From an uncultured Alphaproteobacteria bacterium (GTDB lineage: Bacteria > Pseudomonadota > Alphaproteobacteria > JAGOMX01), in contig CAWAEF010000003.1 in assembly GCA_963780985.1 (NCBI GenBank), positions 110,693 through 174,692 of the forward strand: 64,000 bases of DNA, read 5' to 3'. The notes under the pieces are model-generated. The model was not told where the DNA came from. It did not search any database and saw only the letters and a list, made by a program, of their open reading frames with translations. Position numbers and translations under genes: made by a program. Below are positions 1-34,451 of the stretch, piece after piece; positions within the stretch are counted from its first letter, which is position 1; every line of letters begins with the position of its first letter.

Positions 1-708
1 GTTGTACCTACACCTGCAGTCCAACCACCGATTGCCCGACCTGCACCTGTTGTCGTACCTGCACCCGCCATAACAAGGGCACTGCCGCAAGGATTTGATA
101 TAAGAGCATACATAGCAAACAATCCGGACATAACAAGAGACGCCCCAAAGTTTAATATGACTCCAGAAAACTTTGCCATACATCAGTGGAAGACATGGGG
201 TTGGAACGAGGCCCGCGTTTTCCTTGCGCAATTCATGTTCCCACAGGCGTACCTGGATATGTATCCTGATGTACTGGAACTTGCCAAGCTACTGGGTAAG
301 AACCCACTTGTGTATGCCCAAGAGCATTGGTTTACGCGAGGCAGGTATGACGGCACTCAAGGTGAAGGTCGTCTCACCATGGCCGGCCCGTTTGTGAAGC
401 CGGATAATTTCTGTGTGGAAGCATATAGGGCGCTCTATCCCGATATCGATTTCCATGCACCACGCTTTGCTATGCGACCAGATATTTTTGCGATGGTACA
501 ATATATCAAGTGGGGTAAAGCCGAGGGTCGATTGGTGCTATCAAAGCCAATCATTGTTCCGAGTGGGTTTAACACTCAGAGATACATCGAAAAGTACCGC
601 GCAAAGCTTGAAGCCGAGGCAAAGAAATTTCGCGTGCCGGATCTTACCATTTATGCCAAAGCGCAGTACTCCCAATGGGGTGCCAGCGAAGGCCTAAACG
701 ACAAGTAA
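1..708 (+). CDS. C-terminal part of a repeat-family secreted protein. The reading frame is open to window position 1, and a Pro-rich linker is followed by four ~46-aa repeats.
   Basis: The frame of the listed ORF 157..708 stays open back to nt 1 (VVPTPAVQPPIARPAPVVVPAPA...FDIRAYIANNPDITRDAPKFNMTPENFAIHQWKTWG), which is another copy of the repeat. The repeats match those in 867..2510 and 3039..4157. The conserved C-terminus is YAKAQYSQWG. Confidence 0.7.
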   Translation, partial: VVPTPAVQPPIARPAPVVVPAPAITRALPQGFDIRAYIANNPDITRDAPKFNMTPENFAIHQWKTWGWNEARVFLAQFMFPQAYLDMYPDVLELAKLLGKNPLVYAQEHWFTRGRYDGTQGEGRLTMAGPFVKPDNFCVEAYRALYPDIDFHAPRFAMRPDIFAMVQYIKWGKAEGRLVLSKPIIVPSGFNTQRYIEKYRAKLEAEAKKFRVPDLTIYAKAQYSQWGASEGLNDK

Positions 709-733
709 AACCCCTCAATTAAGAACCAACGAG

Positions 734-767
734 CCCTTGAGAGTATAACGCTCTCAAGGGTTTTTTC
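734..767 (+). terminator. Rho-independent terminator (cccttgagag...ctctcaaggg followed by TTTTTT).
   Basis: A GC-rich 10-bp stem hairpin followed by a T-run, 26 nt downstream of the stop at 708. Confidence 0.55.
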
Positions 768-866
768 TATCTTGCTCCCGTTCCTGAAAAATGTTCTTAT
801 GTTGAAAAGATACTGCAACAATGAGCGCTCAGGGCATCGCCCTTCCTCATCCCATGGGAGACTAAC

Positions 867-2510
867 ATGCGACTTCGCCATTCTTACTTACACTTAGCGC
901 TCGTCATCTGTTTAGGCCTGACCCCAGCTATCACGTTCGCTAGCGTTCCAGTTCCAGATGAACTCACCAGTCGAAAGATCCAACTCACGAAAGGTGATAC
1001 ACACGGGCACACCAAAAGAGATCTCAAAAAGTTTGGCAAAAAACATCCTCGGGTAAAGCAAGATGTACCTAACGGCAATGCGGCCCGGAAAGTACTTCAA
1101 GAGCTAACACTTCCTGAAAATTTGGATTCCAACTCCCCTACCCTGGGTGGATATGGCGAAGTTTACTTGGCCAAGAATTACGTGGTTAAAATCTCAAAAC
1201 CGAGCGGCTCCACCACACCAGAGCGAGAGCTTGCCGGATTATTAGATTTAAAAAGGCGCTTGGGCGCAAACCCCTCCCCCGGCCTGACATTTTGTTGGCC
1301 TAAAGTCGCTTATGAGACTTCTCCGGCGGGGCATGGCAAAGCCAAACCAAAGCTGGGTGTGCAACCCTTCAACATGTACGTCTACGACAGGGTTAATCCT
1401 GTAAAATCGATGAAAACGGTTGTATGGGAAGCACTCGTTTTTAACTCCACGGGCTCAAGAATGGACATCTGTGCATTCGGTGAATGCTTGGGCAGGTTCC
1501 AAGCAAGTTCACTCCTGAAAATCGACAATGGCCGCTATGTTTCCAATGCGCACATGGATCTTAACTATAATAATATCCTGCCTACGGGCCTTCCGTCCCT
1601 GGGCCAAGCCCCAGCGTTTTCCCTTATTGACGTAGCGGATGTGCGTCTTGCGGCAGATCCAAATGCCCCAGAATTACCCATCGACCCTCTCTATTTCGTT
1701 CTTATATCCATACAATGGACCGCGGGATCGGAAGGGTACAGAAATCTTAGCCCGAGTACCAAGAAGAGGCACATACAGGCCTTCGCAAAAGAATTTTTTC
1801 TAGGTCTTTTGAAACCTTTTTCAAATGAAGTGAGAGAAGAACTAAAACCGATTTATACCACGTCGAGTGCAATAAATATCTTCACAGACAAAAGCCCAGG
1901 CAATAATCGTCGGAAAGTTTATCATGCAAACATATTTAGACATTATGACGCATGGATATTACCTGCCATTCGTGAGGCATTTCAGGATGTAGGGGCCCAA
2001 CCTAGCGCGATGCCCGCACCCATACCCGGCCTTCCTGCAGACTTTAATGTACAAGCTTATCTGGACATCTACCCAGATGTCGCCCGAGAAGCCCCTCACT
2101 TTAAGATGGACCCGCTCACCTTTGCAGCATACCAGTATGTCAACTGGGGCCGTTTTGAAGGCAGCCAAAATGAGGGACGCCTCTATCTGACGGGCCCTCT
2201 GGACGTACCCGCCGATTTCTGTGCGGAAGCCTACGCGGAAATGTATCCAGATATCGCTTTGGATGCGCCCCGGTTCTGCCTAGACCCCCTTGTATTTGCC
2301 AAGGTCCAGTACCACAAATGGGGTAGAACCGAGGGAAGGCTCGTCCTCACGAAGAAGATTGAGGTGCCTACGGACTTCAATGCTCAGAAGTATTTAGATA
2401 ATTATCCCCACTTTTACGAGGAAGCAAAGCAATATGGCGTTGACCCTCTTATTTACGCGAGGGCGCAATATTCCCAATGGGGTAAAGGCGAAGGTAGAAG
2501 CTATCAATAA
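867..2510 (+). CDS. Secreted protein with an N-terminal eukaryotic-like protein-kinase-like domain and three C-terminal family repeats.
   Basis: Signal-peptide-like N-terminus. Kinase-like motifs: GGYGEVYLAKNYVVKISK (Gly-loop/VAIK-like) and SNAHMDLNYNNILPTG (HxDLxxxNIL catalytic-loop-like). C-terminal repeats FNVQAYLDIYPDV...QYVNWGRFEG x3, ending YARAQYSQWGKGEGRSYQ. Confidence 0.7.
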   Translation: MRLRHSYLHLALVICLGLTPAITFASVPVPDELTSRKIQLTKGDTHGHTKRDLKKFGKKHPRVKQDVPNGNAARKVLQELTLPENLDSNSPTLGGYGEVYLAKNYVVKISKPSGSTTPERELAGLLDLKRRLGANPSPGLTFCWPKVAYETSPAGHGKAKPKLGVQPFNMYVYDRVNPVKSMKTVVWEALVFNSTGSRMDICAFGECLGRFQASSLLKIDNGRYVSNAHMDLNYNNILPTGLPSLGQAPAFSLIDVADVRLAADPNAPELPIDPLYFVLISIQWTAGSEGYRNLSPSTKKRHIQAFAKEFFLGLLKPFSNEVREELKPIYTTSSAINIFTDKSPGNNRRKVYHANIFRHYDAWILPAIREAFQDVGAQPSAMPAPIPGLPADFNVQAYLDIYPDVAREAPHFKMDPLTFAAYQYVNWGRFEGSQNEGRLYLTGPLDVPADFCAEAYAEMYPDIALDAPRFCLDPLVFAKVQYHKWGRTEGRLVLTKKIEVPTDFNAQKYLDNYPHFYEEAKQYGVDPLIYARAQYSQWGKGEGRSYQ

Positions 2511-2634: not shown

Positions 2635-2866
2635 CGTCATCCTGAACGGACGACCGCGAAGCGGGCGGGAGAGAAGGGTCCAGTCAGACATGTGTCGCGA
2701 AGCGACTCTGATGTAGATGGTCCCACTCATCTTGTTCAACGTCAAATGGACAGCTGGTTGTTTCGTTTGAATATTGGATATATTTTTAAGCAGAGTCGCT
2801 TCGCGACACGTGTTTAACTGGATCCTTCTCTACCGCCCGCTTCGCGGTCGTCCATTCAGTATGACG
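2635..2866. repeat. MITE-like palindromic element, family A, copy 1 (~232 bp with ~76-bp terminal inverted repeats).
   Basis: Left arm cgtcatcctgaacggacgaccgcgaagcgggcgggagagaagggtccagtcagacatgtgtcgcgaagcgactctg. Right arm is its near-perfect reverse complement ending ...cagtatgacg. A second full copy lies at 32349..32571. Confidence 0.7.
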
Positions 2867-3038: not shown

Positions 3039-4157
3039 ATGATTAAAACTGTTCGTTACTTTATTATCCTTCTGGCTTTTTCCGCCCAAGCCTATGGGTC
3101 TAATTTGATTGAGGAACTAGCTCCCCATACGGCTAAGTTTGCCAGGTTTATGGATAATCCGCCTCTTAACCCCTTCAATCCTCAAAGTATTCATGCATTT
3201 AACCGCTTAGCTAGGCCCTTTGCCGAATTTTTGCGGCTGAGTAACACTATACTTATGACTGAAGATCCTTTAAGTCCTCGACAGATCCTGGACCAACTGT
3301 CCGTCCTGCGTGTGGCTCATAACTATCCGGACCACATAGAAGAAGCCTTAGAACAGATCCGTGTCTATATTGCTGCTGGCAGCGATTATGATGCGGAAAC
3401 CAACATGAACTTAAATTATCTACTCCGCACCGTCTGGAGTTATATGCAGAACGATGGGCCCGAAGCTTTGGAAGGTAATTTAAGCGAACTATTCTTCTAC
3501 GTAGGACAAAACGTCTACGAGGGAGGCGGATGCTTCCCAGGTCATGTGGGACGACTGATGTTCCTGAACGGCCTTCATGTCCTGAGAAATCATCGTGCTC
3601 AGATGGAGTATCTCGGGCTGCCATACCCTATACTCGAGGAGGAGCCCCGAAGGCCGCCCATAGGGAATTTACCACGGAAGATCACGAAGCACCTGCCGCG
3701 CGGATTTCATGCACAGGCATACATAGACATGTATCCGGATATCATCAGGGACGCACCGCGCTTCAAGATGGACCCGTTCACCTTCGCGGCCTTTCAGTAC
3801 GTGAAGTGGGGCCGGTCAGAAAATAGAATCTATCTGACATGCCCTTTAGATGTGCCAGCTGACTTCAACGCCGAGGCCTATTGCTTGATGTATCCAGACG
3901 TCGAACAAAATGCTAAAAAATACTGCATGCAGCCCCTCATCTTCGCCAGAGTTCAGTATTTTCTTTGGGGTAGACAGAAGGGAAGACTATGCCTTACCAA
4001 GCCTATTGTCGTACCTGATGATTTTAATGCGGAACAATACTTACACAACCACCCCCGTATGTACGAAGAGGCTAAAAGATTCGGCGTTGAACCCTTAATT
4101 TACGCTATGGCTCAGTATTCCCAGTGGGGTAAGGACGAAAAGAATAGTTACAAGTAA
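3039..4157 (+). CDS. Secreted repeat-family protein (unique N-terminal domain plus three C-terminal family repeats).
   Basis: Signal peptide MIKTVRYFIILLAFSAQAYG. Repeats FHAQAYIDMYPDIIRDAPRFKMDPFTFAAFQYVKWGR..., FNAEAYCLMYPDV..., FNAEQYLHNHP..., ending YAMAQYSQWGKDE. Confidence 0.8.
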   Translation: MIKTVRYFIILLAFSAQAYGSNLIEELAPHTAKFARFMDNPPLNPFNPQSIHAFNRLARPFAEFLRLSNTILMTEDPLSPRQILDQLSVLRVAHNYPDHIEEALEQIRVYIAAGSDYDAETNMNLNYLLRTVWSYMQNDGPEALEGNLSELFFYVGQNVYEGGGCFPGHVGRLMFLNGLHVLRNHRAQMEYLGLPYPILEEEPRRPPIGNLPRKITKHLPRGFHAQAYIDMYPDIIRDAPRFKMDPFTFAAFQYVKWGRSENRIYLTCPLDVPADFNAEAYCLMYPDVEQNAKKYCMQPLIFARVQYFLWGRQKGRLCLTKPIVVPDDFNAEQYLHNHPRMYEEAKRFGVEPLIYAMAQYSQWGKDEKNSYK

Positions 4158-4270: not shown

Positions 4271-5158
4271 TCAAAACCCCTGAGGATCCGTATTCCTAGC
4301 CACAGCCAAAACCATATCCACTTGATACGGAATCTGCCCGCCGTCTTTTACAGAAACCGAGTCCATGTATTGATCTGTAACGTCCGTTATAAGCTGTTCC
4401 TGATCCGCTTCATTCAGGTGTGGTAAATAGCGACCGAGACCAGAACGCACGAATGCTTCCAACTCGCTCCGATCATTGAAGTACAATGAGTACACATGTT
4501 TTTCTGCTGTCACGTCCTTAAACCCAGCACGGGTCATAAAGTTTGCATACTGATCGGGTCTATAGGAAGACCTCGGCTCGACATGTTCAACAAGCTTCTC
4601 GCTCCATTTAGCCTGCTGCACGATAGACTCTATCGCACTCGATAGTGGGGATCCTTTCATCGGGTAAATAACAGCACAAGTGCCCCCTTCTTTCAACATG
4701 GACCGCATGGTCTTGAGGCTTATGACTTGTTTGGTGTCAGGTATATAGCCGACGGCCCAACTGCAGAAAACCATGTCGGCTTTATTCTTTAGTTTCCTGT
4801 CCGCCCTGAAAATATTTCCGTAACGGTTCTCAATTCGGGGATGTGCATGCTGCAATTCCGCAAACTCCACAAGCTCGGGGCTCAAGACATAGTTCATTAT
4901 CTTGGCATCCTCAATCTTGTCCACCAGAAACTGGCTGGTACGGCCCGTGTCAAAGCCTACCAGGACTATACGGGCATAATCGGGCATAATCATGCGCTTG
5001 GTGACCCGGTTAAAGAAGATACGAGAAGAATCATGCATGGGCAAATTGCCGTCAAACACTTCAGGACTCAACGACACCTTAAACGGCTCATCATAGGCCT
5101 GTGCAGGCGCAAGAAACATACAAACCAATGTCAATGCTGTGGCTAATTTTCTTATCAT
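4271..5158 (-). CDS. Secreted SAM-dependent methyltransferase-like protein.
   Basis: Signal peptide. VLVGFDTGRTSQF resembles methyltransferase motif I. ORF of 295 aa. Confidence 0.45.
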   Translation of the reverse strand: MIRKLATALTLVCMFLAPAQAYDEPFKVSLSPEVFDGNLPMHDSSRIFFNRVTKRMIMPDYARIVLVGFDTGRTSQFLVDKIEDAKIMNYVLSPELVEFAELQHAHPRIENRYGNIFRADRKLKNKADMVFCSWAVGYIPDTKQVISLKTMRSMLKEGGTCAVIYPMKGSPLSSAIESIVQQAKWSEKLVEHVEPRSSYRPDQYANFMTRAGFKDVTAEKHVYSLYFNDRSELEAFVRSGLGRYLPHLNEADQEQLITDVTDQYMDSVSVKDGGQIPYQVDMVLAVARNTDPQGF

Positions 5159-6489: not shown

Positions 6490-7722
6490 CTAGAATGCTT
6501 TCTTGCCTAGAACATAAGTAGCAAGCACTTCCAGCTCCTCATTAAGAGCAATGAAATCCGCATCTGCGCCTACATTGAGAGTACCTTTGGTATTCGCTAT
6601 CCCCAGTAGCCTCGCTGGACTGAGAGTAGCCGCCTCGATAGCCTCAAACCATGGGCAGGAACAATAGCCAACTAAATTTAGCACCGCCTCATCCATACTT
6701 AACACACTACCAGCCAGCGTATTGGTACCAGAGATAGTGGCTCTTAGATCACGAGTCACATCAACTTTCATAGAACCCAAAGTGTAACTGCCCTCTCCCA
6801 ACCCCATGGCCGCCATGGCATCGGTCACCAGTATAAGGCCTTTCGGATGAGCCTTTCGGGCTAAATTAATTGTTGCGGGATGTAAGTGATGGCGATCCAC
6901 GATCACCGAATAAAACATATCATCGTGATTCAGAACCCTCGCCACAACCCCGGGATCTCGGTGATTAAAGGGCATGGCATTAAAGAGATGAGTTGCACAC
7001 TTAAGGCCCTGAGCCGTGGCCCGAAACATCCCCATATAACTAGCATTGGTATGACCCGCAGATACAATTATTCCCCTCCTGTAAAGGGCACCAATAGCCT
7101 CATGGGCTTCCGGCACCTCAGGAGCCAGTGTCACCATTCTTACCCCTTCAAGACTGCCGTAAAAATCCTTTGGGTCAGGATATGCACAGCCCAAGACGTT
7201 ACCATGATCATGAGCACCACATTGCTCTTTACTCAAAAAGGGCCCCTCTAGATGCATCCCCAATATGTTCGCACCATGCGCTCCTCCCGCTTTGGGCTGA
7301 AGATGCGGCATACACAAAGGATATTCTTCCTGCTTCAAGGAAACCAAGGTAGGAAGAAAAGAAGTAACACCGAAACGAGTCAACTGCTTAGCTACCTCAG
7401 CCACTCGCTCTGGTGAGCGCGAAAAGTCGACGCCAAAAGCACCATTGATTTGCAGATCAATGTATCCAGGCGCAAGGAAATTGCCTTCCATATCTATGGA
7501 CACATCAGCTTGTTCCCTAGGCTCGATTATTTTGCTGCCCCGAACCCAAATTTCACCATGAAGGTCATCGAGGTGACGAACTTCTGCGGCCGGATCACTA
7601 ATAACTTTAGCGTTGTAATATCGATAAACTTTGTCATCAGGCATTTCATCATCACTAGCATATGATGGGAGAACAGAAGTAAATAAAACAGCTGATGTCA
7701 CAAAGGTCTTAATGATCTGCAT
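6490..7722 (-). CDS. nagA: N-acetylglucosamine-6-phosphate deacetylase-like amidohydrolase.
   Basis: GYIDLQINGAFGVDFS motif and amidohydrolase His/Asp pattern over 410 aa. Confidence 0.65.
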   Translation of the reverse strand: MQIIKTFVTSAVLFTSVLPSYASDDEMPDDKVYRYYNAKVISDPAAEVRHLDDLHGEIWVRGSKIIEPREQADVSIDMEGNFLAPGYIDLQINGAFGVDFSRSPERVAEVAKQLTRFGVTSFLPTLVSLKQEEYPLCMPHLQPKAGGAHGANILGMHLEGPFLSKEQCGAHDHGNVLGCAYPDPKDFYGSLEGVRMVTLAPEVPEAHEAIGALYRRGIIVSAGHTNASYMGMFRATAQGLKCATHLFNAMPFNHRDPGVVARVLNHDDMFYSVIVDRHHLHPATINLARKAHPKGLILVTDAMAAMGLGEGSYTLGSMKVDVTRDLRATISGTNTLAGSVLSMDEAVLNLVGYCSCPWFEAIEAATLSPARLLGIANTKGTLNVGADADFIALNEELEVLATYVLGKKAF

Positions 7723-8606: not shown

Positions 8607-11354
8607 CTAAGCCTCAGCCCAAGTCTGACCCACCGCGGAATCTACCAGAATTGGTACCTTTAGCTCAGCAGAATTTGCCATAATAGGCCTGATCAGGTCG
8701 ATGGTTGCTTCGACCTCGTTGTCGGGGACTTCGAATATGAGTTCGTCGTGGATTTGTAGTAGCATTTTTGCGGCCAGGCCTGTGTCTTTGAGGGCTTGAA
8801 CGCTTCGGATCATGGCTTTTTTGATTAGGTCTGAGACGCTGCCCTGCAACGGTGCATTGATGGCTGCTCGCTCGGCAAAGCCGCGGCGGGAGGGGTTTTG
8901 GGCATTGATCTCGGGGATGAAGCACTTACGACCAAACAGGGTCTTCACAAAGCCAAACTCGTGGGCGATTTTTTTCTGCTCTTCCATGTAACGCTCAATG
9001 CCGGGATAGCGTTCCAAATAGTCCTGAATATGGCGTGCAGCATCGGATCGTGGTATGCGCAGTTGCCGGCTGAGGCCGTGGGCGCTGATGCCATAGATAA
9101 TCCCGAAGTTAATGACCTTTGCGCGATTACGCAGATCGCTATCCACCTGGTCCAGCGGCACACCGAATACTTCCGATGCGGCCATTTTGTGGATGTCCAG
9201 ATTGTGATGAAAAGCGTCCTGCAACTGAGGAATATCAGCCATGTGGGCCAAAAACCGCAGCTCGATTTGGGAATAGTCGAGAGATAGTAACTTACTCCCA
9301 GGATTGGCCTCAAATGCATCGCGAATCTTGCGGCCTTCTTCAGAGCGTACGGGGATATTCTGCAGGTTCGGATTATTGGACGACAACCTTCCCGTAGAGG
9401 TCACCGTCATCCCAAACTGGGTGTGAACCCGTCCGGTTTTGGGATTAATTTGATGCACAAGCGCATCGCTATAGGTGCTTTTCAATTTCGATAAATGCCG
9501 CCAATCAAGGATGAGGATAGGTAGGTGATGCCCCTGCACCGCCAGGTCTTCCAGGACCTCCGCCCCTGTAGAATGAGCACCGGTCTTGGCGCTTTTGCGG
9601 CCCTTTTCCATGTCCATTTCGTCAAACAGCACTTCTGCCAGCTGTTTAGGAGAACCGATATTAAACTGACGCCCTGCGGCTTCGTAAATATCCTTTTCGA
9701 TCCGGGCTATGCGAGCACCGAAGTCTTTACTGATGTCCTTGAGCTTTTGCAAGTTTATGCCGATACCACAGTATTCCATATCCGCCAGAATCTTAATCAT
9801 AGGGCGGTCTAGGGTTTCATAGATGGTCTGCTGATGTTCTTTTATTATCCGGGATTTCAGAACCGTATAAAGGCGACCCGTTATATCCGCGTCTTCGGCC
9901 GCATATGTGCAGGCGGGCTCCAGTTCTACCTCATCAAAACGCAGCTGAGTCTTTCCTGATCCCGTTACGTCCTTATAAGAAATCGTCTGATAGTCGAAAT
10001 AAAGCTTCGCCAGCTCATCCATACCATGGCCATGAGAGACCCCATCCAGTACATAAGACATAACCATGGTGTCATCAATGGGAGAAACCTCAATGCCGTA
10101 GCGCCTAAGGACCAGCATGTCGTATTTAAGGTTCTGGCCGATCTTAAGGATACTCGGATCTTCCAAGACCGGTTTCAACTGATCTATCGCCTGTTGGAAG
10201 GGTATTTGCGTAACGGACTTGCCCGCTTTGCCTTGATCAAACAGATCACCATTTCTGACCTTGTGAGCAAGAGGTATATAACACGCCTCACCAGACTTTA
10301 AAGACAGGGAGACACCCACCAGCTCAGCCATCATGGGATCCAGGGATGTGGTCTCCGTGTCCACAGACACATGACCGACCTCATTAATGCGGGTAATCCA
10401 CGCCTGAAGCGCCTCAACGGTCTGTACCAGCTGGTAATCGGCTTTTTCTGTTGGCGCCACTTCTATATTATTGGCACTCAGCTTGAATCCACGCTTTTCA
10501 AGGCGCGCTTTGACCCCATTAAAACTCTGAGCATCCAAAAACCGCGTTAGTTCGTCTACGTCAGGCTCTTTAAAGCTAAAGTCTTCTATGGTTTGGTCAA
10601 CGGGTACATTATTTTCTAGGGTCACTAATTGGTAACTTATGCGGGCACTCTCCGCATGCTCAAGCAAGCGCTCTCGGCGCTTAGGTTGCTTAATCTCATT
10701 TGCCCTGGCCAGCAGGTTCTCTAGGTTTCCGTATTCAAGTATCAGTTCCGCTGCGGTCTTCACGCCGATACCTGGCACCCCTGGAACATTGTCCGAGGTA
10801 TCTCCTGCTAGCGACTGAATATCTACAACTTTGTCGGGTGTAACTCCAAACTTTTCGATTACTTCTGGCACACCAATGGGGCGATTGCGGATAGGGTCAA
10901 ACATAACAACTTGATCATTAACCAGCTGCATCAAGTCCTTGTCGGAGGAAACAATGGTCACCTCCATCCCCTGCTCTACGGCTTTTCTGGCATAGGTTGC
11001 AATCAGGTCATCGGCCTCAAATCCAGGCATTTCAATCATCGCTACGTTAAAGGCCTTACAAGCCTCACGCACCAGGCCGAATTGCGGGATAAGCTCGTGG
11101 GGCGTTTCCTCGCGATTGGCTTTGTAATCCGCATATATATCGTTACGAAAAGTCTTGCGCGCGCTATCAAACACGACCACAATGTGGTCGGCTTTCATAT
11201 CCATGATGAGACGGATGAGCATATTGGTAAAACCAAGCACCGCGTTTATCTGAACGCCATCAGGACGTGTAAGCGGCGGCAAAGCATGAAAAGCACGGAA
11301 GATGAAGCCTGAGCCATCAACCAAATAGAGGTGATTTTGATGATTGTTTGTCAT
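8607..11354 (-). CDS. polA: DNA polymerase I.
   Basis: The full 5'-3' exonuclease, 3'-5' exonuclease and Klenow polymerase domains are present, with motifs LYLVDGSGFIFRAF, DYSQIELR and QIHDELIFE. The likely start is the internal Met (MTNNHQ...) at 11354 rather than the 11417 ORF start. Confidence 0.93.
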   Translation of the reverse strand: MTNNHQNHLYLVDGSGFIFRAFHALPPLTRPDGVQINAVLGFTNMLIRLIMDMKADHIVVVFDSARKTFRNDIYADYKANREETPHELIPQFGLVREACKAFNVAMIEMPGFEADDLIATYARKAVEQGMEVTIVSSDKDLMQLVNDQVVMFDPIRNRPIGVPEVIEKFGVTPDKVVDIQSLAGDTSDNVPGVPGIGVKTAAELILEYGNLENLLARANEIKQPKRRERLLEHAESARISYQLVTLENNVPVDQTIEDFSFKEPDVDELTRFLDAQSFNGVKARLEKRGFKLSANNIEVAPTEKADYQLVQTVEALQAWITRINEVGHVSVDTETTSLDPMMAELVGVSLSLKSGEACYIPLAHKVRNGDLFDQGKAGKSVTQIPFQQAIDQLKPVLEDPSILKIGQNLKYDMLVLRRYGIEVSPIDDTMVMSYVLDGVSHGHGMDELAKLYFDYQTISYKDVTGSGKTQLRFDEVELEPACTYAAEDADITGRLYTVLKSRIIKEHQQTIYETLDRPMIKILADMEYCGIGINLQKLKDISKDFGARIARIEKDIYEAAGRQFNIGSPKQLAEVLFDEMDMEKGRKSAKTGAHSTGAEVLEDLAVQGHHLPILILDWRHLSKLKSTYSDALVHQINPKTGRVHTQFGMTVTSTGRLSSNNPNLQNIPVRSEEGRKIRDAFEANPGSKLLSLDYSQIELRFLAHMADIPQLQDAFHHNLDIHKMAASEVFGVPLDQVDSDLRNRAKVINFGIIYGISAHGLSRQLRIPRSDAARHIQDYLERYPGIERYMEEQKKIAHEFGFVKTLFGRKCFIPEINAQNPSRRGFAERAAINAPLQGSVSDLIKKAMIRSVQALKDTGLAAKMLLQIHDELIFEVPDNEVEATIDLIRPIMANSAELKVPILVDSAVGQTWAEA

Positions 11355-11667: not shown

Positions 11668-12903
11668 ATGAAGTATATTGCATTTATCATTATGATTTTT
11701 ACGTTACCCTTGGCTCATGCTAGCCAGGGAGTATCTGTTGACCCCAACGCCCAAGAAGAAGCGGCTCGCCAGCGCGCACAGGCTCGAAGAGAGCTCAACC
11801 AAGGACTTGCAGAGAACCTGCGGCCACCCAAGAGCAAGCCACAATTAAAACATCTTTGCCAATTACAAGCCATGGAGCTAGACCCCCATTGGACATTTCA
11901 AGGAATGGCTACTTTCTTGGATGTCCAATATCTCTTCCTTGGCAATCTGAACTTGGCGACACTGCCTTCCTCACTTACCCAGCTTAAAAAGCTTGTAACA
12001 CTGGATTTATCAGACAACCGCCTTACAGAAACCCCCTCCTGGCTAACAATGCTCAAAGTATTGGATGAGCTAAGCCTAAATCACAACGAGTTAGACACGA
12101 GCAAAGACTTCCTTAAGGGAGCAAAACACGTAAGAAAGCTGCATCTAAATGGAAACGGCTTCACACAAGTTCCGACCGCTCTTGATGGCATGACGAAACT
12201 GGTAGTCATCGATCTGAAGGATAATAAAATAGAAGAGATTCCAGCCTTTATAAGTAATCTCCCGCTGAGAGGTCTATGCCTTGCGAATAACATGATCGAA
12301 GAACTTCCCGCGCATATGTCACAGATGAGAAACCTTAGAACTCTAGAACTGCAATCAAATTCTTTGCGCTCACTACCAAACTTCCTGTTGAGTCTAGCTA
12401 ATTTAGTTTACGTAGATGTTAGTAACAACAAATATTTAGTGCAAAATAAGACTGCTGAAGCGCTAAGACTACAAGGCAAACTCGATATGACCCAGCAGGT
12501 TGCCACGCAACTTGCTTCAAAAGCGACAAATAATATGGTCGCTACAGTTCAGAACAAGCCCCAGACCCAGGCACCGAGAGCAACGACGGAGCTGAAAGCA
12601 GCCGAGAAAATCAAGCAGCAAGCAGTTGCAAGCACTCCTCAAAAAAGGCCGCGGCCCTCCAAAAAAGACAGCCCAGCCACTGACTTGGATCTAACGCTGG
12701 TGGAGGGCAAAATCGACTCTGTGGCAAAAATCCTCTCGGACGTACAACCTGACCAGAGATTATTAATAGCACTGACTGCTGCAAATCTCCCAAAAAGAAA
12801 CAGCGATTCGACTATATATAATACATTGATCGCCTTGGGAATCGATAATGTCACCGCAGAAAAGATGATGAAGCAACTGCCCAAAGATAAGCAGAATAAG
12901 TAA
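11668..12903 (+). CDS. Secreted leucine-rich-repeat (LRR) protein, eukaryotic-like effector candidate.
   Basis: Signal peptide MKYIAFIIMIFTLPLAHA. About ten LxxLxLxxNxL repeats, for example LVTLDLSDNRLTETP and LRTLELQSNSLRSLP. Confidence 0.75.
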   Translation: MKYIAFIIMIFTLPLAHASQGVSVDPNAQEEAARQRAQARRELNQGLAENLRPPKSKPQLKHLCQLQAMELDPHWTFQGMATFLDVQYLFLGNLNLATLPSSLTQLKKLVTLDLSDNRLTETPSWLTMLKVLDELSLNHNELDTSKDFLKGAKHVRKLHLNGNGFTQVPTALDGMTKLVVIDLKDNKIEEIPAFISNLPLRGLCLANNMIEELPAHMSQMRNLRTLELQSNSLRSLPNFLLSLANLVYVDVSNNKYLVQNKTAEALRLQGKLDMTQQVATQLASKATNNMVATVQNKPQTQAPRATTELKAAEKIKQQAVASTPQKRPRPSKKDSPATDLDLTLVEGKIDSVAKILSDVQPDQRLLIALTAANLPKRNSDSTIYNTLIALGIDNVTAEKMMKQLPKDKQNK

Positions 12904-12913
12904 TTAAACCTGA

Positions 12914-15053
12914 CTACCCCTTAGCGCGATCGACGCTGCTGATGTGGGATGAAGATCGCAGCGCACCTATAATATTGTTCAGGTGAGATATATCGGTAAC
13001 TTCCACATCAACGATAACGTCGAAGAAGGTCTCCGTTCGGTGGGTTATCTTCAGGTTTAATATGTTACCGCCATTTTTGCCGATCAGGGTCGTCAGGGCT
13101 GCAAGGCTGCCCAGCTTGTTATAGATGGTAATCCTTAGGCGCGTTACATACTTGTCCTCGACACTGGATTCATCAGACCAGCCCACATCCAACCAACGAT
13201 CAGGCTCATCTGCGTATCGTTGCAGGGTATCACAGTCTTCCGTATGCACAGTCACACCACGGCCTGTTATCACAATACCGACAATTTTGTCACCGGGTAG
13301 AGGGTGACAACAACCTGCATAGTGCACCGCCATTCCTGGAATAAGTCCTTTGAGCGAGACTTTACCTTCCGTGTGGGTCTTTTTATCCGACCATTCTTCA
13401 GGTGTCTTGGTTCGCTTATCAGAGACCAGTCTTTCAGGGTGCAGCACCCGGATAATTTCAGAAACCGTACGTTGTCCTTCACCCAGAATCGAGTATAGAT
13501 CCTCGATAGATTTACAACCCAACTTGCCCAGATTTTCAGTCAGAGTCGCCTCATCAAATACGAGCTTTTCGGCTTTGAAAGTCTTTTGCAGTATGGTCTG
13601 CCCCAGCGCCACAAACTCATGGCGCTTTTGGGTGCGGATGTACCGGCGGATGGCTGATCTCGCCTTACCCGTGACCGCATAGCGTTCCCATGTGGGTGAA
13701 GGCGTTTGTGCCTTGGAGGTGGTGATCTCCACCTGGTCACCATTATGGAGCACGTACGCAAAGGCACCATACGCCCGTTTATTTTGGCGCCTACGCAATG
13801 ATTGCCCACAGCGCTGTGCACCGCATAAGCAAAGTCGATGGGTGTGGCCCCACTAGGCAGGGAGATCAAATCACCCTTGGGCGTAAAGCAGAACACCTGA
13901 TCCTGGAACATTTCCAGCTTGGTGTTTTCCAAAAACTCTTCTGGATCTGAAGCATTTTCAAGGATATCCAACAGCCCACGCAGCCATTTATAACCGGAAG
14001 AAGCCTCATCTACTCTCCCGCCTTGTTTATACCGCCAGTGAGCAGCCACACCGTAGTCATTGACCTCATGCATATCCTTGGTACGGATTTGTATCTCAAT
14101 ACGATACCCTTTCGGACCGATGACGGTTGTGTGAAGAGACTGGTAGTTATTGGGTTTTGGCGTTGATATGTAATCTTTAAATCGCCCCGGTATCACCGAA
14201 TAAGCCCCATGCAGGTAGCCAAGTGCCTGATAGCATTCCGACACACCGTTAACAACTACCCGGAACGCGACAATGTCCGACAACTGTTCGAACGTCACGT
14301 TTTTATTACGCATCTTTCGCCAAATGGAATAAGGGGATTTTTCCCGACCAGAGATCTTGACTTCCATCCCGTTGTTTTCAAACAGGTCCTTTAAATCCTT
14401 GGTAATAACGTTGACTGAGTCTTCATCTTCTTCCCGCAGGAACTTGAGACGGGCCAGAATAGAGTCCCTGGCATCGGGATTTAGTTCTCTAAAAGCCAGA
14501 TCCTCAAGCTCGTCCTTCATTTTGTGCACGCCGATGCGCTGGGCCAGCGGCACATAAATTTCCATGGTCTCCCGCGCTTTACGGGCGCGCTTTTCAGCCG
14601 ATGGCAAGTAATGTAGCGTCCGCATGTTATGCAGGCGGTCCGCCAGTTTAATAAGCGACACCCGAATATCATTGGACATAGCCAACACGAGTTTACGAAA
14701 GTTCTCCGCTTGCTCTTGCTGGTGAGACTCCCATTTGATCATGGAAAGTTTCGTAACCCCATCCACTAGCTTGCGCACGTCTTTGCCGAAGTGTTTTTCA
14801 ATATCATCAAGACTGACGTGGGTGTCCTCAACGGGTCATGCAACAATGCCGTAACGATAGAAGCCGTATCTAGCTTCATTTCCGTCAGGATGCCAGCAAC
14901 TTCCAAAGGATGAGAAAAATAGGGATCACCGGACGCACGGGTTTGCGACCCATGGGCCTTCATGGCAAAGACATATGCTGAGTTTAAAGCATCCTCATCC
15001 GCATTTGGATCGTAGGCTTTTACTCGTTCTACAAGCTCATACTGTCTGATCAT
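12914..15053 (-). pseudogene. spoT: Bifunctional (p)ppGpp synthetase/hydrolase SpoT/RelA homologue interrupted by two frameshifts.
   Basis: Three consecutive same-strand ORFs: 14766..15053 (HD hydrolase N-terminus), 13540..14778 (synthetase/TGS) and 12914..13798 (C-terminal ACT region). The N-terminal junction needs a 1-nt correction at ~14830 (catgaccCgttgaggac should be catgacAccgttgaggac to read HDTVEDTHVSLDDIEKHFGKDVRKLVDG). The second junction lies near 13.76-13.80 kb. Confidence 0.8.
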
Positions 15054-17763: not shown

Positions 17764-19405
17764 ATGATTATAAAAACATTAATAATATGGAATGATTCTC
17801 AAATGTCAAAAGAGACGGTTAACCCAGGAATTCCGCAAATCTTGATGGCTAAAGGCTTTCTGTCAAATGATCAATTCGCAATTGTCAAAAAGGAGCGGGA
17901 AAAAACCGGAAAAAATTTTTCGCAGACGCTGGTTGCTTTGGGTTTTATCAGCGAGCAATCCCTCAATCAGATCGTTGCGGAGCATGGCGGCTTTACGGCG
18001 CTCGATCTTTCTTCCACATCCCTGGATCATGAGCTAATTAAAACCTTGCCAAGACACATCGCGGAGCAAAGGCAAATGATACCGGTGTCCATGGAGGGCA
18101 GTAACCTTTTGCTGGCATTGGTGGATGTATATGATTTGCGGGCGCTGGATCAGGCTCGGAAGTATTTTCCCCATTGTACCCTGCAACCAGTTCTGACCAA
18201 CAGCGCACAACTGAAAGCTGCCATCGATCGTTATTACGGCTATGAACTTACCGTCGACAAATTGCTGAAGGAAATTGAGAGCTCAAATGTGGCCCTCGAG
18301 GGCGAAACAACTTGGGTCAGTCCTGTTGTCCGTCTTGTTGAAACGCTTTTGATCCATGGGATTAAATTGGGAGCCTCCGACGTTCATTTTCAGCCAGAGG
18401 AGAGCTTTGTTCGCGTAGATATCGCATCGATGGCATCTTGCAACAGCACTGCGTCTTCCACAAGTCCTATTGGTCCGCTATCTGTGTGCGCCTCAAGGTT
18501 ATATCTGATCTAAATCTAGCTGAATCACGACGACCCAAACGGGACGCTTAAGCCTGATGTACGGCTTGCGTGAGGTCGACTTTCGCGTTTCTTCACATCC
18601 TACGGTCTATGGCGAAAGCATCGTCTTGCGTATCCTAGACAAACAACATTCCATCAGGTCTTTGGAGCATCTAGGCTTCAACCCGGAACAAGTGGCGAGC
18701 CTTATCCAGCAGATCAAGCAGCCTCAGGGTTTGTTTATTATTACGGGCCCAACAGGATCGGGTAAGACCACCACCCTTTACTCGATTTTGCAGTACCTTA
18801 ACAGTTCCTCACGCAACATTATGACCTTGGAGCAGCCTGTGGAATACCGGCTGCCTATGATTCGACAGTCAGAAATCCGGGAGATGAGCAAGACCACCTT
18901 TGCCGACGGTGTCAGGAGCCTTTTGCGGCAGGATCCGGACATCATCTTCATCGGCGAGGTGCGGGATGAGGATACGGCTCAGATGGCCCTGAGAGCGGCT
19001 ATGACGGGGCATCTCGTGTTTACGACCTTGCATACCAATGATAGCGCCAGCGTCATTTCTCGCCTTCGGGATCTGGGGCTCAAACCCGGCATGGTGGCGG
19101 ATTACCTCGTGGCCTCGGTCTCCCAGAGATTGCTACGGTTGCTTTGTGCGAATTGTGGAGGAGATGGTTGCCAGGACTGTCATCACACTGGATTCAAGGG
19201 ACGGCAAGCAGTGGGGGAGATACTGGTCTTTAATGCGACCCTTAAAGACCTGGTTGCAGAGGGCGCATCCCCTAGCCTTTTGCGCAAAGCCGCAACGGAA
19301 CAGGGGTTCAAGCCTATGGCAGCGGTGGCGCAGGACATGATTGACAAGGGACTCACCACAAGGGATGAAGTGGATTTCCAGCTGGGGGCTGCTCATGGGG
19401 AATAG
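17764..19405 (+). pseudogene. GspE/PilB/MshE-family secretion ATPase with a T2SSE_N domain, interrupted by frameshifts near 18.43 and 18.54 kb.
   Basis: The N-terminal T2SSE_N-like domain is in 17764..18513. Walker A GPTGSGKTTT and the C-terminal tetracysteine CANCGGDGCQDCHHTG are in 18557..19405. The conserved RIDG.../AESRRP segments read in a third frame between the two ORFs. Confidence 0.75.
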
Positions 19406-23216: not shown

Positions 23217-23565
23217 ACGTATCCCTACAGAAGGGAACTACAAGCGTCGCTTGCTTATCACATGTCATGGGGTCCCGTGCGGGTATTTTATTCAAACCGA
23301 GAACAATGAATATTCCTTTACCTACTTTGAAGATTATCGGGGCCCTCCCATATCTTTAACCATGCCGGTGCGGTCTGAACCTTACACCTTTAATCGGTTT
23401 CCGCCCTTTTTTGACGGATTGTTGCCAGAAGGCATACTGCTGGAGGCTCTCATTCGGCAGAATAAAATTGATGCCCATGATTACATGGCGCAGCTAGAGG
23501 CCGTTGGAGCCGACATGGTGGGGGCGGTAACTGCCTTGCCTGATTCTATGAAAAAGGGGAAATGA
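23209..23565 (+). CDS. hipS: HipA N-terminal-subdomain-like protein, HipS-like.
   Basis: FPPFFDGLLPEGILLEALIRQ matches the HipA N-terminal motif FFDNLLPEG. 118 aa. Its stop overlaps the next start in ATGA. Confidence 0.65.
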   Translation: MNERIPTEGNYKRRLLITCHGVPCGYFIQTENNEYSFTYFEDYRGPPISLTMPVRSEPYTFNRFPPFFDGLLPEGILLEALIRQNKIDAHDYMAQLEAVGADMVGAVTALPDSMKKGK

Positions 23566-24518
23566 TGCGCTGCCCCATTACTTACGAGGAACTTCTTCCC
23601 GGGGAAGAGAAATATAGCGCGGCTGGCTTAAAACGCTTGTCGCCGAATCTCAAGACCTTGAAAGATTTTCCCTATACCATGGAAGAACAGCTGCGAGAGG
23701 CAAATCGCTTAGCTTCTAAACTCTCCATTCAAGGCGTTCAACCCAAACTGAGTGTCGTGCTTGATGTAACCCATGAAACATTTAAGATCACCGATAAGGG
23801 CGGAACCTTTATCCTAAAACCACAAAACCCCCAATGGAATAGCCTGCCCGAAAATGAGGACCTGACCATGCGCCTGGCTGCGCTGGTTGGGATTGAGGTG
23901 CCTCTGCATGGTTTGCTGTACTGCAAAGACGGCGCCTTGAGCTATTGGATCCGCCGCTTTGATCGTCCATCCTTACGAAATCCGACAAACGTAAAGCTAA
24001 GCCTGGAAGATTTTGCCCAGCTGAGCCAAGAAGACCGCCAAACAAAATATAACAGCTCCATGGAAAAGGTGGCCAAAGTCATCCGCGAGTTCTGCTCCTT
24101 CCCCATTATGGAATTAGAAAAGTTGTTTAGGTTAACCATATTTAACTTTGTGGTCGGGAATGAGGACATGCACCTGAAGAATTTTTCGTTAATCACCAGG
24201 GACAACCTGATATCCCTATCCCCGGCCTACGATTTACTTAATTCCACTCTCGCCATGGGCACTGGAACACGGGAGGAAATAGCTTTATCTCTTAATGGGA
24301 AAAGGCAGAAACTGAAGGCAGAAGATCTGATAGATACCTATGGTATTGAACGATTAGAGCTACGCCCTAGTACCGTCAACAAGATCCTGCAGACGATAAT
24401 TGAGGCTCAGCCTCTATGGATAGAACTTATAGACCGAAGCTTCCTGTCGCAAGCGCAAAAAGAGGGCTATAAATCCATTATCCATGAGAGGTTGGAACGG
24501 CTCTTGCGGAACAAGTAA
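23562..24518 (+). CDS. hipT: HipA-family kinase core, HipT-like toxin.
   Basis: P-loop-like GVQPKLSV and catalytic motif VGNEDMHLKNFSL, which matches GNxDxHxKN of HipA. 318 aa. Confidence 0.75.
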   Translation: MMRCPITYEELLPGEEKYSAAGLKRLSPNLKTLKDFPYTMEEQLREANRLASKLSIQGVQPKLSVVLDVTHETFKITDKGGTFILKPQNPQWNSLPENEDLTMRLAALVGIEVPLHGLLYCKDGALSYWIRRFDRPSLRNPTNVKLSLEDFAQLSQEDRQTKYNSSMEKVAKVIREFCSFPIMELEKLFRLTIFNFVVGNEDMHLKNFSLITRDNLISLSPAYDLLNSTLAMGTGTREEIALSLNGKRQKLKAEDLIDTYGIERLELRPSTVNKILQTIIEAQPLWIELIDRSFLSQAQKEGYKSIIHERLERLLRNK

Positions 24519-24537: not shown

Positions 24538-26136
24538 CTATTTCCTCTTGGTGTAAAAGTTATCTTCGTTTCTACCCCATATGGAGAACTGTGCCCTTGC
24601 GTAGGCAAATGGATCACCAATTCTGAATCTTTTGGCCTCTTCGTGGAAGCGCGGATTATCGTGCAGATAACGATGCACATCAAGATCAGCAGGCACAACT
24701 ATTGGCCTTTCAGTATGTAGCTTTCCTTCCGCAATTCCCCAGGTGACGTATTGGTAAAGAGCAAAAGATACGGGATCGAGATTGAAACGCGGAGCATCTC
24801 TGAGGATATCCGGGTACAATTCAATGTATGCATCGGCACAGAAAAACTTAGGCAGCTTAGCCTTCCGGTTGTCGTCAAGCGCGACCAGCAGCGCTGGGCT
24901 GATGGGAGCAAGTACCGGATCCGGAACAGACGGCATCCCAGGCGCTTTAATTTGAGCTGGCACAGCGTTATTATGAAGCAGGTCTATTTCCTTCACACAT
25001 CTAAGCCATGCCCGAGTGGGATGTAAGAGCCCCTGCCCCCAATGCCGCGCTCCCTTTGCGTCATAAGATCCTGGCTTTAAAGCAGATGAGAGCATAAAGC
25101 GTTTGATGTCGACCATACTCAGTTCAGGGAAGAGGTGACTTAGAGCCTGTACCACTGTAGTTCCTTTAGGAGCGCTGTGAGAAGTCCCTGTATGAACTGA
25201 ACTGTTAAGCGTAAGGGCATGCTCAGCACACAGGACATGATCCTGTAAATCACCGGCTCGGTTTGAATAGCTAGCCATTCTCCAATCATAACCATGTTCT
25301 GGCCATGCTTTGGGAAGAAGTTCAGCAGCAGATACAAGAAGAACCCGCTTCAACAAGTTTCGGAACTTCAGAAGAGCACTGGTTATATCTACATACCCAA
25401 CATCCAAGCGTTGGCCCTGATAAGGGGCATAGTCCAGGTTGCTGTCCATTTCACAACCTTTATTGCCAAGAGCTTTAACCAGCAACATATCATTATCATC
25501 AAGAATCTTGGCAAATCTATTGACGTCTGCATCCAGTGTAGCCATGCTGAAGACCATCGCCATAGACATATTGATGACCCGAGGTATGGGCTTACCCTGA
25601 CGCTTATATCGCTCTATAGTCGCCTCGATTCCATCCATCACGTATTTATTAATCGTCGACATACCGCGCTCACCATCTTCGGTGAGCTCGCGCCGAGGTG
25701 AGCTTATAAAAGGAATAACTGTCGCACCGGCTGCCATAGGCGCATAAATAGAAAACTTGCCCTTTCCCGCAGCAGCGCACGACACGGTCGCCCCATGAGC
25801 GATCATGCCCCTGTGGCTATTAAGACGAGCCAATATGGCGGGATGAACATCATAATTAACATGATCAATGCCACTGAATGCAACATCGAGAACAATCATA
25901 GAGGAGCCATCACCTTTAACACCCCCGCTTCTGAAATGCTCAATGTCTTGGATGTCCGGCAATTCTGCCGCCTGCCGAAGGAAGTCAGGGTCAAGAAGTT
26001 TGGGATCCAGCCTAGCACGCCGCTCGCGGCCAAGGTCTTGGGGATTATCATTACTGCATGCAAAGCTTGTACTTGGGACCAGACAAGCGGCAATAGCTAG
26101 GATAGCAAGATATACTTGCAGTTTAAATTTTAACAT
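24538..26136 (-). CDS. Lipoprotein with a divergent subtilase (S8)-like domain and two C-terminal family repeats (fourth member of the repeat family).
   Basis: Signal peptide and lipobox-like LVPSTSFAC. Candidate Asp/His/Ser motifs VLDVAF, AHGATV and HTGTSHSAP (GTSxxxP). C-terminus FFCADAYIELYPDILRDAPRFNLDPVSFALYQYVTWG...YARAQFSIWGRNE. Confidence 0.55.
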   Translation of the reverse strand: MLKFKLQVYLAILAIAACLVPSTSFACSNDNPQDLGRERRARLDPKLLDPDFLRQAAELPDIQDIEHFRSGGVKGDGSSMIVLDVAFSGIDHVNYDVHPAILARLNSHRGMIAHGATVSCAAAGKGKFSIYAPMAAGATVIPFISSPRRELTEDGERGMSTINKYVMDGIEATIERYKRQGKPIPRVINMSMAMVFSMATLDADVNRFAKILDDNDMLLVKALGNKGCEMDSNLDYAPYQGQRLDVGYVDITSALLKFRNLLKRVLLVSAAELLPKAWPEHGYDWRMASYSNRAGDLQDHVLCAEHALTLNSSVHTGTSHSAPKGTTVVQALSHLFPELSMVDIKRFMLSSALKPGSYDAKGARHWGQGLLHPTRAWLRCVKEIDLLHNNAVPAQIKAPGMPSVPDPVLAPISPALLVALDDNRKAKLPKFFCADAYIELYPDILRDAPRFNLDPVSFALYQYVTWGIAEGKLHTERPIVVPADLDVHRYLHDNPRFHEEAKRFRIGDPFAYARAQFSIWGRNEDNFYTKRK

Positions 26137-32348: not shown

Positions 32349-32571
32349 CGTCATCCTGAACGGACAAACCGGCAGCGGGCGGTAGTGAAGGATCCAGTCA
32401 GACATGCGTCGCGTAGCGACTCTGTTATAAATATACCCAACATACAACTGAAACAACCAGCTGTCTAAATTACCTTAAAATGGGACCATCCACAGCAGAG
32501 TCGCTTCGCGACGCATTTATAACTGGATCCTTCTCTCCCGCCCGCTTCGCAGTCGTCCGTTCAGGATGACG
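32349..32571. repeat. MITE-like palindromic element, family A, copy 2 (~223 bp).
   Basis: cgtcatcctgaacggacaaaccggcagcgggcggtagtgaaggatccagtcagacatgcgtcgcgtagcgactctg ... cagagtcgcttcgcgacgcatttataactggatccttctctcccgcccgcttcgcagtcgtccgttcaggatgacg. Confidence 0.7.
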
Positions 32572-34219: not shown

Positions 34220-34451
34220 GTGACAAACGTCACTCCACCACCCTTCGAGTCAATTCTCACACTTACCGTCATTCAAGCACAGCTGGACAACAATTCCAAC
34301 TAGTTTTATATATATAGATAGGGGCGCTAGTTATCTCGTTTTTTTGCTAATCTTTTCTGACTCTTCCCTTGCAATTTCTTAAGAAAACATTATATAATAT
34401 ATATGTCAGGAAACTGACTATGGCGATAAACGTCTTATGGAATAGGCGATG

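Follow-up and report, generated by a model that had tools for sequence, protein, structure and literature searches.

Within a 64,000-nt stretch of contig CAWAEF010000003.1 from an uncultured member of the Alphaproteobacteria (hereafter the window), the open reading frame (ORF) 867..2510 is a complete coding sequence of 547 amino acids (aa) comprising a signal peptide, a kinase-like domain, a Pro/Ala linker, and three C-terminal repeats. The gene and all its features described below lie on the forward strand. Its G+C content is in line with that of the remaining window, and its product is identical to a protein present in public collections (P0001). Locus L005 holds a near-identical strain copy of the gene, and a metagenome scan returned the same gene from a near-identical strain and nothing more. 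A Shine-Dalgarno-like GGGAGA (856..861), read from the sequence, precedes the ATG at 867 by 5 nt. Between the stop codon of an upstream paralogue and 867..2510, a pattern scan found a consensus match to a terminator-like hairpin with a 14-bp stem followed by a T run (731..763), which suggests that the gene forms a separate transcription unit.

The product had been proposed to be secreted, and a hydropathy heuristic made a Sec-type signal peptide likely. Residues 1 to 25 (867..941) form a predicted Sec-type signal peptide with a basic n-region (MRLRH), a hydrophobic core, and TFA followed by S at the putative cleavage site. The N-terminus, MRLRHSYLHLALVICLGLTPAITFA continued after that site by SVPVPDE, has a 12-residue window with a mean Kyte-Doolittle value of 2.33 and T-F-A at positions -3 to -1. 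By the same heuristic, a signal-peptide-like N-terminus is common to most full-length members of the family described below. Just past the predicted cleavage site lies the motif VPDE (aa 29-32; 951..962), which is conserved in the core family as [LVF]P[DN]E and was found at the N-termini of P0001, P0002, P0005, P0006, P0008, P0009, P0013, P0016, P0017, and the L005 paralogue. Several other proteins of the window with signal peptides also have acidic residues at their mature start (ASDDE, AYDEP, ATDEF). A signal for sorting or processing could lie in these acidic mature starts and in the [LVF]P[DN]E motif.

The protein-kinase-like (PKL) domain occupies aa 62-372 (1050..1982), as delimited by an AlphaFold2 (AF2) model, a Foldseek search, and the family profile. 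The original prediction had rested on a Gly-loop/VAIK-like string and a catalytic-loop string spaced by about 115 aa. Both turned out to be present in the ORF: GGYGEVYLAKNYVVKISK corresponds to aa 94-111 (nt 1146-1199) and includes GGYGEVY..VVKIS (aa 94-110), SNAHMDLNYNNILPTG corresponds to aa 226-241 (nt 1542-1589) and includes HMDLNYNN (aa 229-236), and it is 115 aa from the end of the former to the start of the latter. We then determined the conservation of these and the other expected kinase positions in an alignment of 24 sequences of the kinase-like domain (A4), to which all counts out of 24 refer. The Gly-rich loop GGYGEV (aa 94-99; 1146..1163), which aligns with GGFGQV of PKR, was conserved at G94 (21/24), G97 (19/24), and V99 (19/24), and only two of the three Gly-loop glycines are present in the 867..2510 product. 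The equivalent of the beta-3 "VAIK" Lys is K108 (1188..1190), located in model strand 44-49 (aa 105-110), with K in 19 sequences, R in 4, and E in 1; an Arg in place of this Lys has been proposed for another bacterial PKL family (PMC9758233). E121 (1227..1229), in model helix 57-71 (aa 118-132), is the equivalent of the alpha-C Glu and is invariant (24/24). The catalytic loop (aa 229-236; 1551..1574) provides H229 and the catalytic D231, each found in 23 of the 24 sequences, and the Mg-ligand N236, found in all. The equivalent of the DFG or Mg-binding motif, for which the original prediction had called, is also present: LIDVADV at aa 253-259, in which LID (aa 253-255; 1623..1631) follows model strand 189-192 and places the DFG-Asp at D255 (23/24). 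D273 of a DxxYF motif (1683..1685), the equivalent of the alpha-F Asp, stands at the start of model helix 211-225 and is again invariant (24/24), and P145 was found in 23/24. The best-conserved columns of the alignment are the expected catalytic positions. The alignment of the family stops at a Pro/Ala-rich linker (aa 373-389; 1983..2033).

A composite pattern was assembled from the Gly loop, [VAIL]xK, E, HxD[LFIM]xxxN[IVLF], and a hydrophobic-hydrophobic-D element at kinase-like spacings. It matched none of 20,000 shuffles of the protein. The window contains 57 stop-free segments of 150 aa or more, and ORF 867..2510 was the only one to match. A search of PDB sequences with the A4 hidden Markov model (HMM) gave 73 matches at E<=10 (best E, 0.027), and all 60 shown were protein kinases or APH. 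These alignments were in register at the Gly loop, the VAIK Lys, the alpha-C Glu, HxDLxxxN, and the DFG position. HMDLNYNN was placed opposite H-R-D-L-K-x-x-N of PKR, CDPK, and twitchin, H-C-D-F-N-x-x-N of RIO2, and H-G-D-L-x-x-x-N of APH, and LID was placed opposite the (I/V)D(F/L) motifs of kinases and APH. The best of these profile matches included PKR, RIPK3, CDPK, twitchin, and Wee1. The comparison of the family profile by hhalign with PKA and APH(3')-IIIa sequences was weak (43% and 6% probability, respectively), with the catalytic loop in register.

Structure prediction, proposed earlier as a check, gave a kinase fold. The AF2 model m4f74a28adcd2, obtained for aa 62-372 with A4 as input (model residue i is protein residue i+61), had a pLDDT of 88.8 and a pTM of 0.89 and was bilobal, with a beta-sheet N-lobe carrying an alpha-C helix and a helical C-lobe. 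Along the chain, the Gly loop GGYGEV, which runs up to and over the first residues of model strand 36-41, leads into that strand and is followed by the strand with K108, the helix with E121, and two further strand regions; then come a low-confidence insertion (aa 152-171), helices matching alpha-D and alpha-E, the H229-D231-N236 loop, two short strands, and D255. The model ends with a helix starting at D273, 18 residues past D255, and about 100 further residues of helices. Foldseek found 255 PDB matches at E<=1e-3, and all of the 50 listed were of the kinase fold, with TM-scores of 0.3-0.5. They included APH(2'')-Ia (E, 4.8e-6), a CMGC kinase, TNIK, capreomycin phosphotransferase, PINK1, MK2, and PERK, as well as PRPK/Bud32 (TMt up to 0.51), maltokinase (TMq, 0.51), and MTR kinase (0.50). 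As modeled, aa 62-372 is a bilobal kinase fold with the full catalytic set in canonical order on the canonical secondary-structure elements, and the claim that the N-terminal half is protein-kinase-like was borne out. AF2 prediction of the whole protein from the single sequence was uninformative (pLDDT, 36.7).

Word-indexed homologue searches recovered two to three proteins; with the 867..2510 product as the query, these were the protein itself and one 939-aa protein of 28% identity. The family was recovered only by an exhaustive HMMER search with a two-sequence profile of the N-terminal domain against 1.84 billion representative proteins (E<=1e-3), which found 26 proteins. One of these, P0025, was a false positive and was rejected as a family member: it is a repeat protein that matches one short stretch of the profile seven times. 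Every member looked up was of metagenome or metagenome-assembled genome (MAG) origin and had either no name or the label "hypothetical"; the two species-representative genomes with a relative are both "Alphaproteobacteria bacterium" MAGs. Searched as a single sequence, the 867..2510 product had no match in Pfam (E<=1), in NCBIfam, or, by phmmer, in PDB. A PDB profile search from four sequences returned noise alone, and phmmer of P0021 and P0022 against PDB was uninformative. The link to curated PKL models runs only through distant members: the query has no match, while P0021 (E, 1.4e-7 against the family profile) passes the threshold for Kdo and P0022 that for EcKL. We conclude that the product belongs to a rare family with no name and no Pfam or NCBIfam model. 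One member, P0010, has E at the position of K108, N at that of D231, and G at that of D255 and keeps the fold motifs and the repeats; judged from its residues, it is likely a pseudokinase paralogue.

The weak Pfam matches of the family, all of which cover the catalytic loop, were then used to determine its affinities. TCAD9 was matched weakly by 11 members, EcKL by 5 (P0022, 22.6 bits versus a gathering score of 22), Kdo by 4 (P0021, 24.8 bits versus 21.3, the other three being subthreshold), and APH by 4 (the best, P0021, 20.8 bits versus 23.2). RIO1, Choline_kinase (13.4 versus a gathering score of 29), and DUF1679 were matched by single members each, and in NCBIfam there were weak matches to Bud32 and Kdo-kinase models. 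These profile affinities point to Kdo, Bud32, RIO, APH, EcKL, and TCAD9, and on its sequence features we assign the product to the atypical Kdo/Bud32/RIO/APH-like part of the superfamily. This group holds both protein kinases and small-molecule kinases. A role in defense, prompted by the TCAD9 matches, was considered and rejected: PADLOC gave no match for the gene and nothing relevant for three downstream neighbors.

The original prediction had also placed a repeat module behind the kinase-like domain. We found three C-terminal repeats of about 50 aa starting at aa 390 (aa 390-446, 447-499, and 500-547; 2034..2507), with the consensus P.DF.A.AY...YPD..[gap]..DP..[FY]A..QY..WG..EGR. The repeat has no relative in Pfam, NCBIfam, or PDB, including in a search of PDB with the repeat profile. 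It is present in family members P0002, P0005, P0009, P0010, and P0036 and in the distant P0021, and this recurrence marks a signal peptide, a kinase-like domain, and repeats as the core architecture. In other relatives the tail consists of leucine-rich repeats (LRR; P0020 and P0023) or Sel1 repeats (P0029). In the window itself the module occurs on four proteins. Directly upstream, 1..708 (forward strand, frame open from base 1) is the C-terminal end, with four repeats, of a tandem paralogue whose gene starts before the window. Its product is identical to the C-terminus of P0007 (579 aa), the kinase-like domain of which is 44% identical to that of the query, and a full-length copy of this paralogue with its own signal peptide is found at L005 3785..5659. 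The listed ORF 157..708 is the C-terminal part of the paralogue alone, read from an internal ATG. Downstream, 3039..4157 (forward strand) encodes, as judged from the sequence and Pfam, a signal peptide, an N-terminal domain with no Pfam match, and the same three-repeat module. A more distant carrier, 24538..26136 (reverse strand), combines a signal peptide with a Peptidase_S8 (subtilase) domain and two repeats. Since the latter two proteins both have signal peptides, the repeat acts like a common "address" carried by exported proteins with different heads. By analogy, we propose that the repeats are a targeting or anchoring module.

The surroundings of the gene include several orphan ORFs and a number of recognizable genes. 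A convergent neighbor, 4271..5158 (reverse strand), encodes a class I S-adenosylmethionine (SAM)-dependent methyltransferase (Pfam Methyltransf_25/11) with a signal-peptide-like N-terminus. MshEN, T2SSE, and T2SSF genes of the type II secretion or type IV pilus type lie 15 kb from 867..2510. The effector-like content of the window comprises a 1,768-aa protein with a DUF2608 region (42026..47332), two LRR proteins (11668..12903 and 52784..54226), a patatin-like phospholipase (29022..30038), and a HipA_C kinase (23562..24518). A host-associated lifestyle would be in keeping with the LRR, patatin, and DUF2608 genes. A transfer-messenger RNA (tmRNA) of the alphaproteobacterial type (34365..34717) fixes the class of the organism.

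Two genes of the window are apparently split. The GspE/PilB-type ATPase is divided between a MshEN ORF (17764..18513) and a T2SSE ORF (18557..19405), and RelA/SpoT is divided between two overlapping ORFs on the reverse strand (12914..13798 and 13540..14778). Frameshifts resulting from gene decay or from an assembly error are a possible cause. On the reverse strand, 6490..7722 encodes an amidohydrolase-like protein with a signal-peptide-like N-terminus (MQIIKTFVTSAVLFTSVLPSYA, then SDDE), unexpected for a normally cytoplasmic enzyme; by eye, the product looks like an N-acetylglucosamine-6-phosphate deacetylase. Downstream of 867..2510 there is a 76-nt inverted repeat (2635..2710 and 2791..2866; 91% complementary, 80-nt spacer), which had no Rfam match. 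Its 22-nt core, CGGACGACCGCGAAGCGGGCGG, occurs at four sites of the window, including 32538..32559 and 55891..55912, with none expected by chance. It looks like a dispersed element of the repetitive extragenic palindromic (REP) or miniature inverted-repeat transposable element (MITE) type.

Our preferred reading, in which we place moderate confidence, is that the 867..2510 product is a Sec-exported modular protein with an atypical PKL phosphotransferase head, apparently catalytically competent, and a repeat tail that targets or anchors it. The protein would be exported via Sec and then either released, possibly through the type II secretion system (T2SS)-type machinery, or retained on the cell surface by its repeats. 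ATP-Mg would be bound through G94-V99, K108-E121, N236, and D255, and D231 would act as the base in the transfer of the gamma-phosphate to a hydroxyl of a target recruited by the C-terminal module. The periplasm and the exterior of a free-living bacterium contain little ATP; given the signal peptide, the most likely setting is therefore an ATP-rich host environment, with the protein acting after release or while displayed on the surface. The scarcity of ATP outside the cytoplasm, combined with a neighboring exported methyltransferase that would need SAM, makes the host cell the most plausible site of action. An "effector" role is possible, the observations in its favor being circumstantial, namely, the T2SSE/T2SSF genes, the LRR, patatin, and DUF2608 neighbors, and the LRR and Sel1 tails of relatives.

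As for the substrate, we favor a macromolecule and rank proteins above glycans, lipids, and small molecules. A host or surface protein comes close to an even prospect, in view of the RIO/Bud32 affinities and of relatives whose tails are LRR or Sel1 repeats. Glycans, lipids, and small molecules form a somewhat weaker group of candidates, which owes its standing to the Kdo/APH affinities, the polysaccharide-cluster neighbors of some homologues, and the pairing of kinase and methyltransferase (WbdD, Lani_1194). What probability remains goes to other chemistry or to no activity.

The loci of the homologues bear directly on this choice. In L001, L003, and L004, the genes of 940-aa homologues adjoin a divergent signal-peptide methyltransferase. 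The class I SAM-dependent methyltransferases next to the kinase-like genes are located, on the reverse strand, at L001 84..1178, L003 6815..7432, and L004 6518..7609 and 10776..11339; the methyltransferases of the window and of L001 and that at L004 6518..7609 have signal-peptide-like N-termini. No BLASTP similarity was detected between the methyltransferase of the window and that of L004. The methyltransferase was therefore rejected as a conserved orthologous partner, the association being a recurrence of enzyme class. The locus of P0033 contains orphan genes and an LRR protein, that of P0013 contains orphan genes, and P0027 adjoins cell-envelope peptidases. The genes of P0008/P0036 (L006 and L007) and P0021 (L010, 2..4823) directly follow a giant methyltransferase-glycosyltransferase and an epimerase, which are orthologous at 54% and 41% identity, respectively. 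In L006 (1..9101) and L007, this glycosyltransferase and epimerase are part of an ABC-transporter-type polysaccharide cluster with rmlA, rmlC, Wzm, and Wzt (plus Wzt_C).

Owing to this link of P0008/P0036 and P0021 with polysaccharide genes, we keep a glycan-directed function as a serious rival. The protein would then be an envelope glycan or lipid kinase, Kdo/WaaP- or WbdD-like, that modifies a surface polysaccharide or lipopolysaccharide (LPS), possibly together with the neighboring methyltransferase, its repeats binding the polymer. Besides the position of these homologues directly after the glycosyltransferase and epimerase, such a function would fit the passing of the Pfam Kdo threshold by P0021, the weak NCBIfam Kdo-kinase matches of two members, and the presence of small-molecule kinases (APH(2''), capreomycin phosphotransferase, maltokinase, and MTR kinase) among the top Foldseek matches. 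It would also fit the class I methyltransferases adjoining the gene in the window and in L001, L003, and L004, since kinase-methyltransferase pairs operate in glycan capping, for example in the WbdD and Lani_1194/NoeA architectures (PMC9758233). However, the LPS and O-antigen kinases described so far work on the cytoplasmic side of the membrane, whereas this protein and the methyltransferases carry predicted export signals, and the periplasm is not expected to contain ATP or SAM. Moreover, the query's own neighborhood is free of polysaccharide genes, the methyltransferases are not orthologous between loci, and the LRR and Sel1 tails of relatives suggest protein targets. We regard the envelope kinase as unlikely.

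Less probable still is a Hanks-type eukaryotic-like Ser/Thr kinase, that is, a secreted effector phosphorylating host proteins on Ser/Thr, a reading along the lines of the original prediction. The fold and the catalytic residues would fit, as would the PDB profile matches to PKR, RIPK3, CDPK, twitchin, and Wee1, the protein-binding LRR and Sel1 modules in the tails of relatives, and the effector-like gene neighborhood. Against this stands a set of consistent differences. Pkinase (PF00069) gave no match for the product at E<=1 and was not among the 25 Pfam families most matched by the 26 members at E<=0.1. The catalytic loop is of the H-x-D-L-N type: the residue two positions after the catalytic Asp (D+2, position 233) is N in 15 sequences, H in 4, S in 3, T in 1, and G in 1 of the 24, but never K, and position 230 is R in 1/24 only. 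Only 18 residues lead from D255 to the alpha-F Asp, D273, and no APE is conserved among them. The query does read "APE" at aa 267-269, but it shares this with its closest relatives P0006 and P0009 alone, and the Glu is not kept elsewhere. In addition, the Gly loop has two of the three glycines, and the weak affinities go to Kdo, Bud32, RIO, APH, and EcKL. By these tests, the 867..2510 product is not a Hanks-type eukaryotic-like Ser/Thr kinase; of the description first given, "kinase-like" stood, whereas neither "eukaryotic-like" nor "Ser/Thr" was supported in view of the missing Pkinase match, the Asn at D+2, and the 18-residue segment.

Two further explanations fared worse. The kinase fold might serve something other than phosphorylation, such as AMPylation, as in SelO, or glutamylation, as in SidJ, or the domain might be a catalytically dead binding scaffold. 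AMPylating pseudokinases of the SelO type lack the catalytic Asp, while the query keeps every canonical residue, including this catalytic base, and these residues are the family's best-conserved columns. The loss of K108, D231, and D255 in P0010 does indicate that pseudokinases exist in the family, and atypical bacterial kinase-fold proteins often show unexpected chemistry, a theme also raised in PMC9758233. On balance, we consider this quite improbable for the query. Finally, a chance resemblance, in which short kinase-like strings would be embedded in an unrelated fold, could draw on the lack of any significant Pfam, NCBIfam, or PDB phmmer match for the single sequence and on the uninformative single-sequence AF2 model but is refuted by the shuffle test, the motif residues that form invariant columns in 24 homologues, and the confident alignment-based model that matches only kinase folds, which leaves it barely credible.

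Returning to the exported PKL phosphotransferase with a repeat tail, we can extend this reading to the other carriers of the repeat, although we consider the extension rather unlikely. The kinase would be one head of a hitherto unrecognized modular exoprotein system of uncultured, probably host-associated alphaproteobacteria. In this system, the approximately 50-aa repeat "address" would direct several Sec-exported heads (kinase, subtilase, and uncharacterized domain, with exported methyltransferases close by) to one destination, a bacterial surface glycan or a host structure, and the kinase would draw on host ATP. If so, it would represent a new class of bacterial kinase, exported and active outside the cytoplasm, and the shared repeat would be the hallmark of an entire set of exported proteins in these genomes. 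The kinase-fold superfamily gains a rare family whose members, unlike most bacterial kinases, have predicted Sec signal peptides and interchangeable C-terminal modules (the new repeat, LRR, or Sel1). Confirmation of its activity would furnish an example of a kinase acting outside the bacterial cytoplasm and a way into host manipulation or surface decoration by an uncultured alphaproteobacterium.

The repeat module and the kinase-like head each have counterparts among known systems. Anchors of the SLH type are common to diverse exoenzymes. The repeat resembles these and other exoenzyme anchors in that it occurs as two to eleven tandem units of about 50 aa on kinase-like, subtilase, and uncharacterized heads, all of which have signal peptides, but it differs from them in having no sequence relation to any Pfam or PDB entry. 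With the Kdo/WaaP kinases (PF06293; PRK01723), the family shares the H-G/x-D-L-x-x-x-N-[IV] loop, a hydrophobic-I-D motif about 20 residues further on, and a short activation segment; its distant member P0021 exceeds the Pfam gathering score, and two homologues lie beside a polysaccharide cluster. The known members of Kdo/WaaP are cytoplasmic, whereas the query has a predicted signal peptide and C-terminal repeats, is located outside a waa/LPS-core locus, and has no match to the HMM. With the APH (PF01636) and EcKL (PF02958) families, the resemblance lies in the best Foldseek match, APH(2'')-Ia (PDB 5IQF), in HGDLxxxN and IDxxx being in register, and in P0022 passing EcKL. Here, however, the TM-scores are about 0.4 and the identity is 11-14%, the APH matches of the family stay below the gathering score, and the query, predicted to be exported and modular, has no APH or Choline_kinase (PF01633) match and no resistance or metabolic context.

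RIO and Bud32/PRPK likewise have a small polar residue at D+2 and a minimal kinase domain that lacks both an activation loop and APE, and this likeness extends to the weak Pfam RIO1 and NCBIfam Bud32 matches, the RIO2 loop in register, and the presence of PRPK among the Foldseek matches. RIO and Bud32 occur universally in archaea and eukaryotes, as housekeeping proteins of the cytoplasm, in contrast to the present family, which is rare, bacterial, predicted to be exported, and longer by about 100 helical residues after alpha-F. The Hanks-type kinases (PF00069) have in common with it the fold, the Gly loop with an aromatic tip, the VAIK Lys, the alpha-C Glu, HxD...N, the Mg-binding Asp, and the alpha-F Asp; they are set apart by the HMM match, the Lys at D+2, the HRD Arg, and the APE/P+1 loop, all absent here, and by DFG, which is replaced by ID[VNCL].

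Legionella effectors are delivered by Dot/Icm and have no Sec signal peptides. The PKL families of the Legionella pan-kinome are divergent domains recognizable only by profile or structure, with conserved equivalents of D166, N171, and D184 (PMC9758233). Like the family described here, these effectors sometimes have an Arg for the beta-3 Lys, are combined with repeat or enzyme modules, and are associated with class I methyltransferases (PMC9758233). Lani_1194, compared by its description only, has no identifiable alpha-C Glu (PMC9758233), whereas E121 is invariant here. New divergent kinase-fold families are reported regularly (PMC9758233; a 2026 oral-microbiome preprint), and one more is in itself a fairly common find now. 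What is known from these systems is the fold and the catalytic logic; what is new is a rare family with an export signal, a conserved post-signal motif, and a previously undescribed repeat that it has in common with other exported enzymes.

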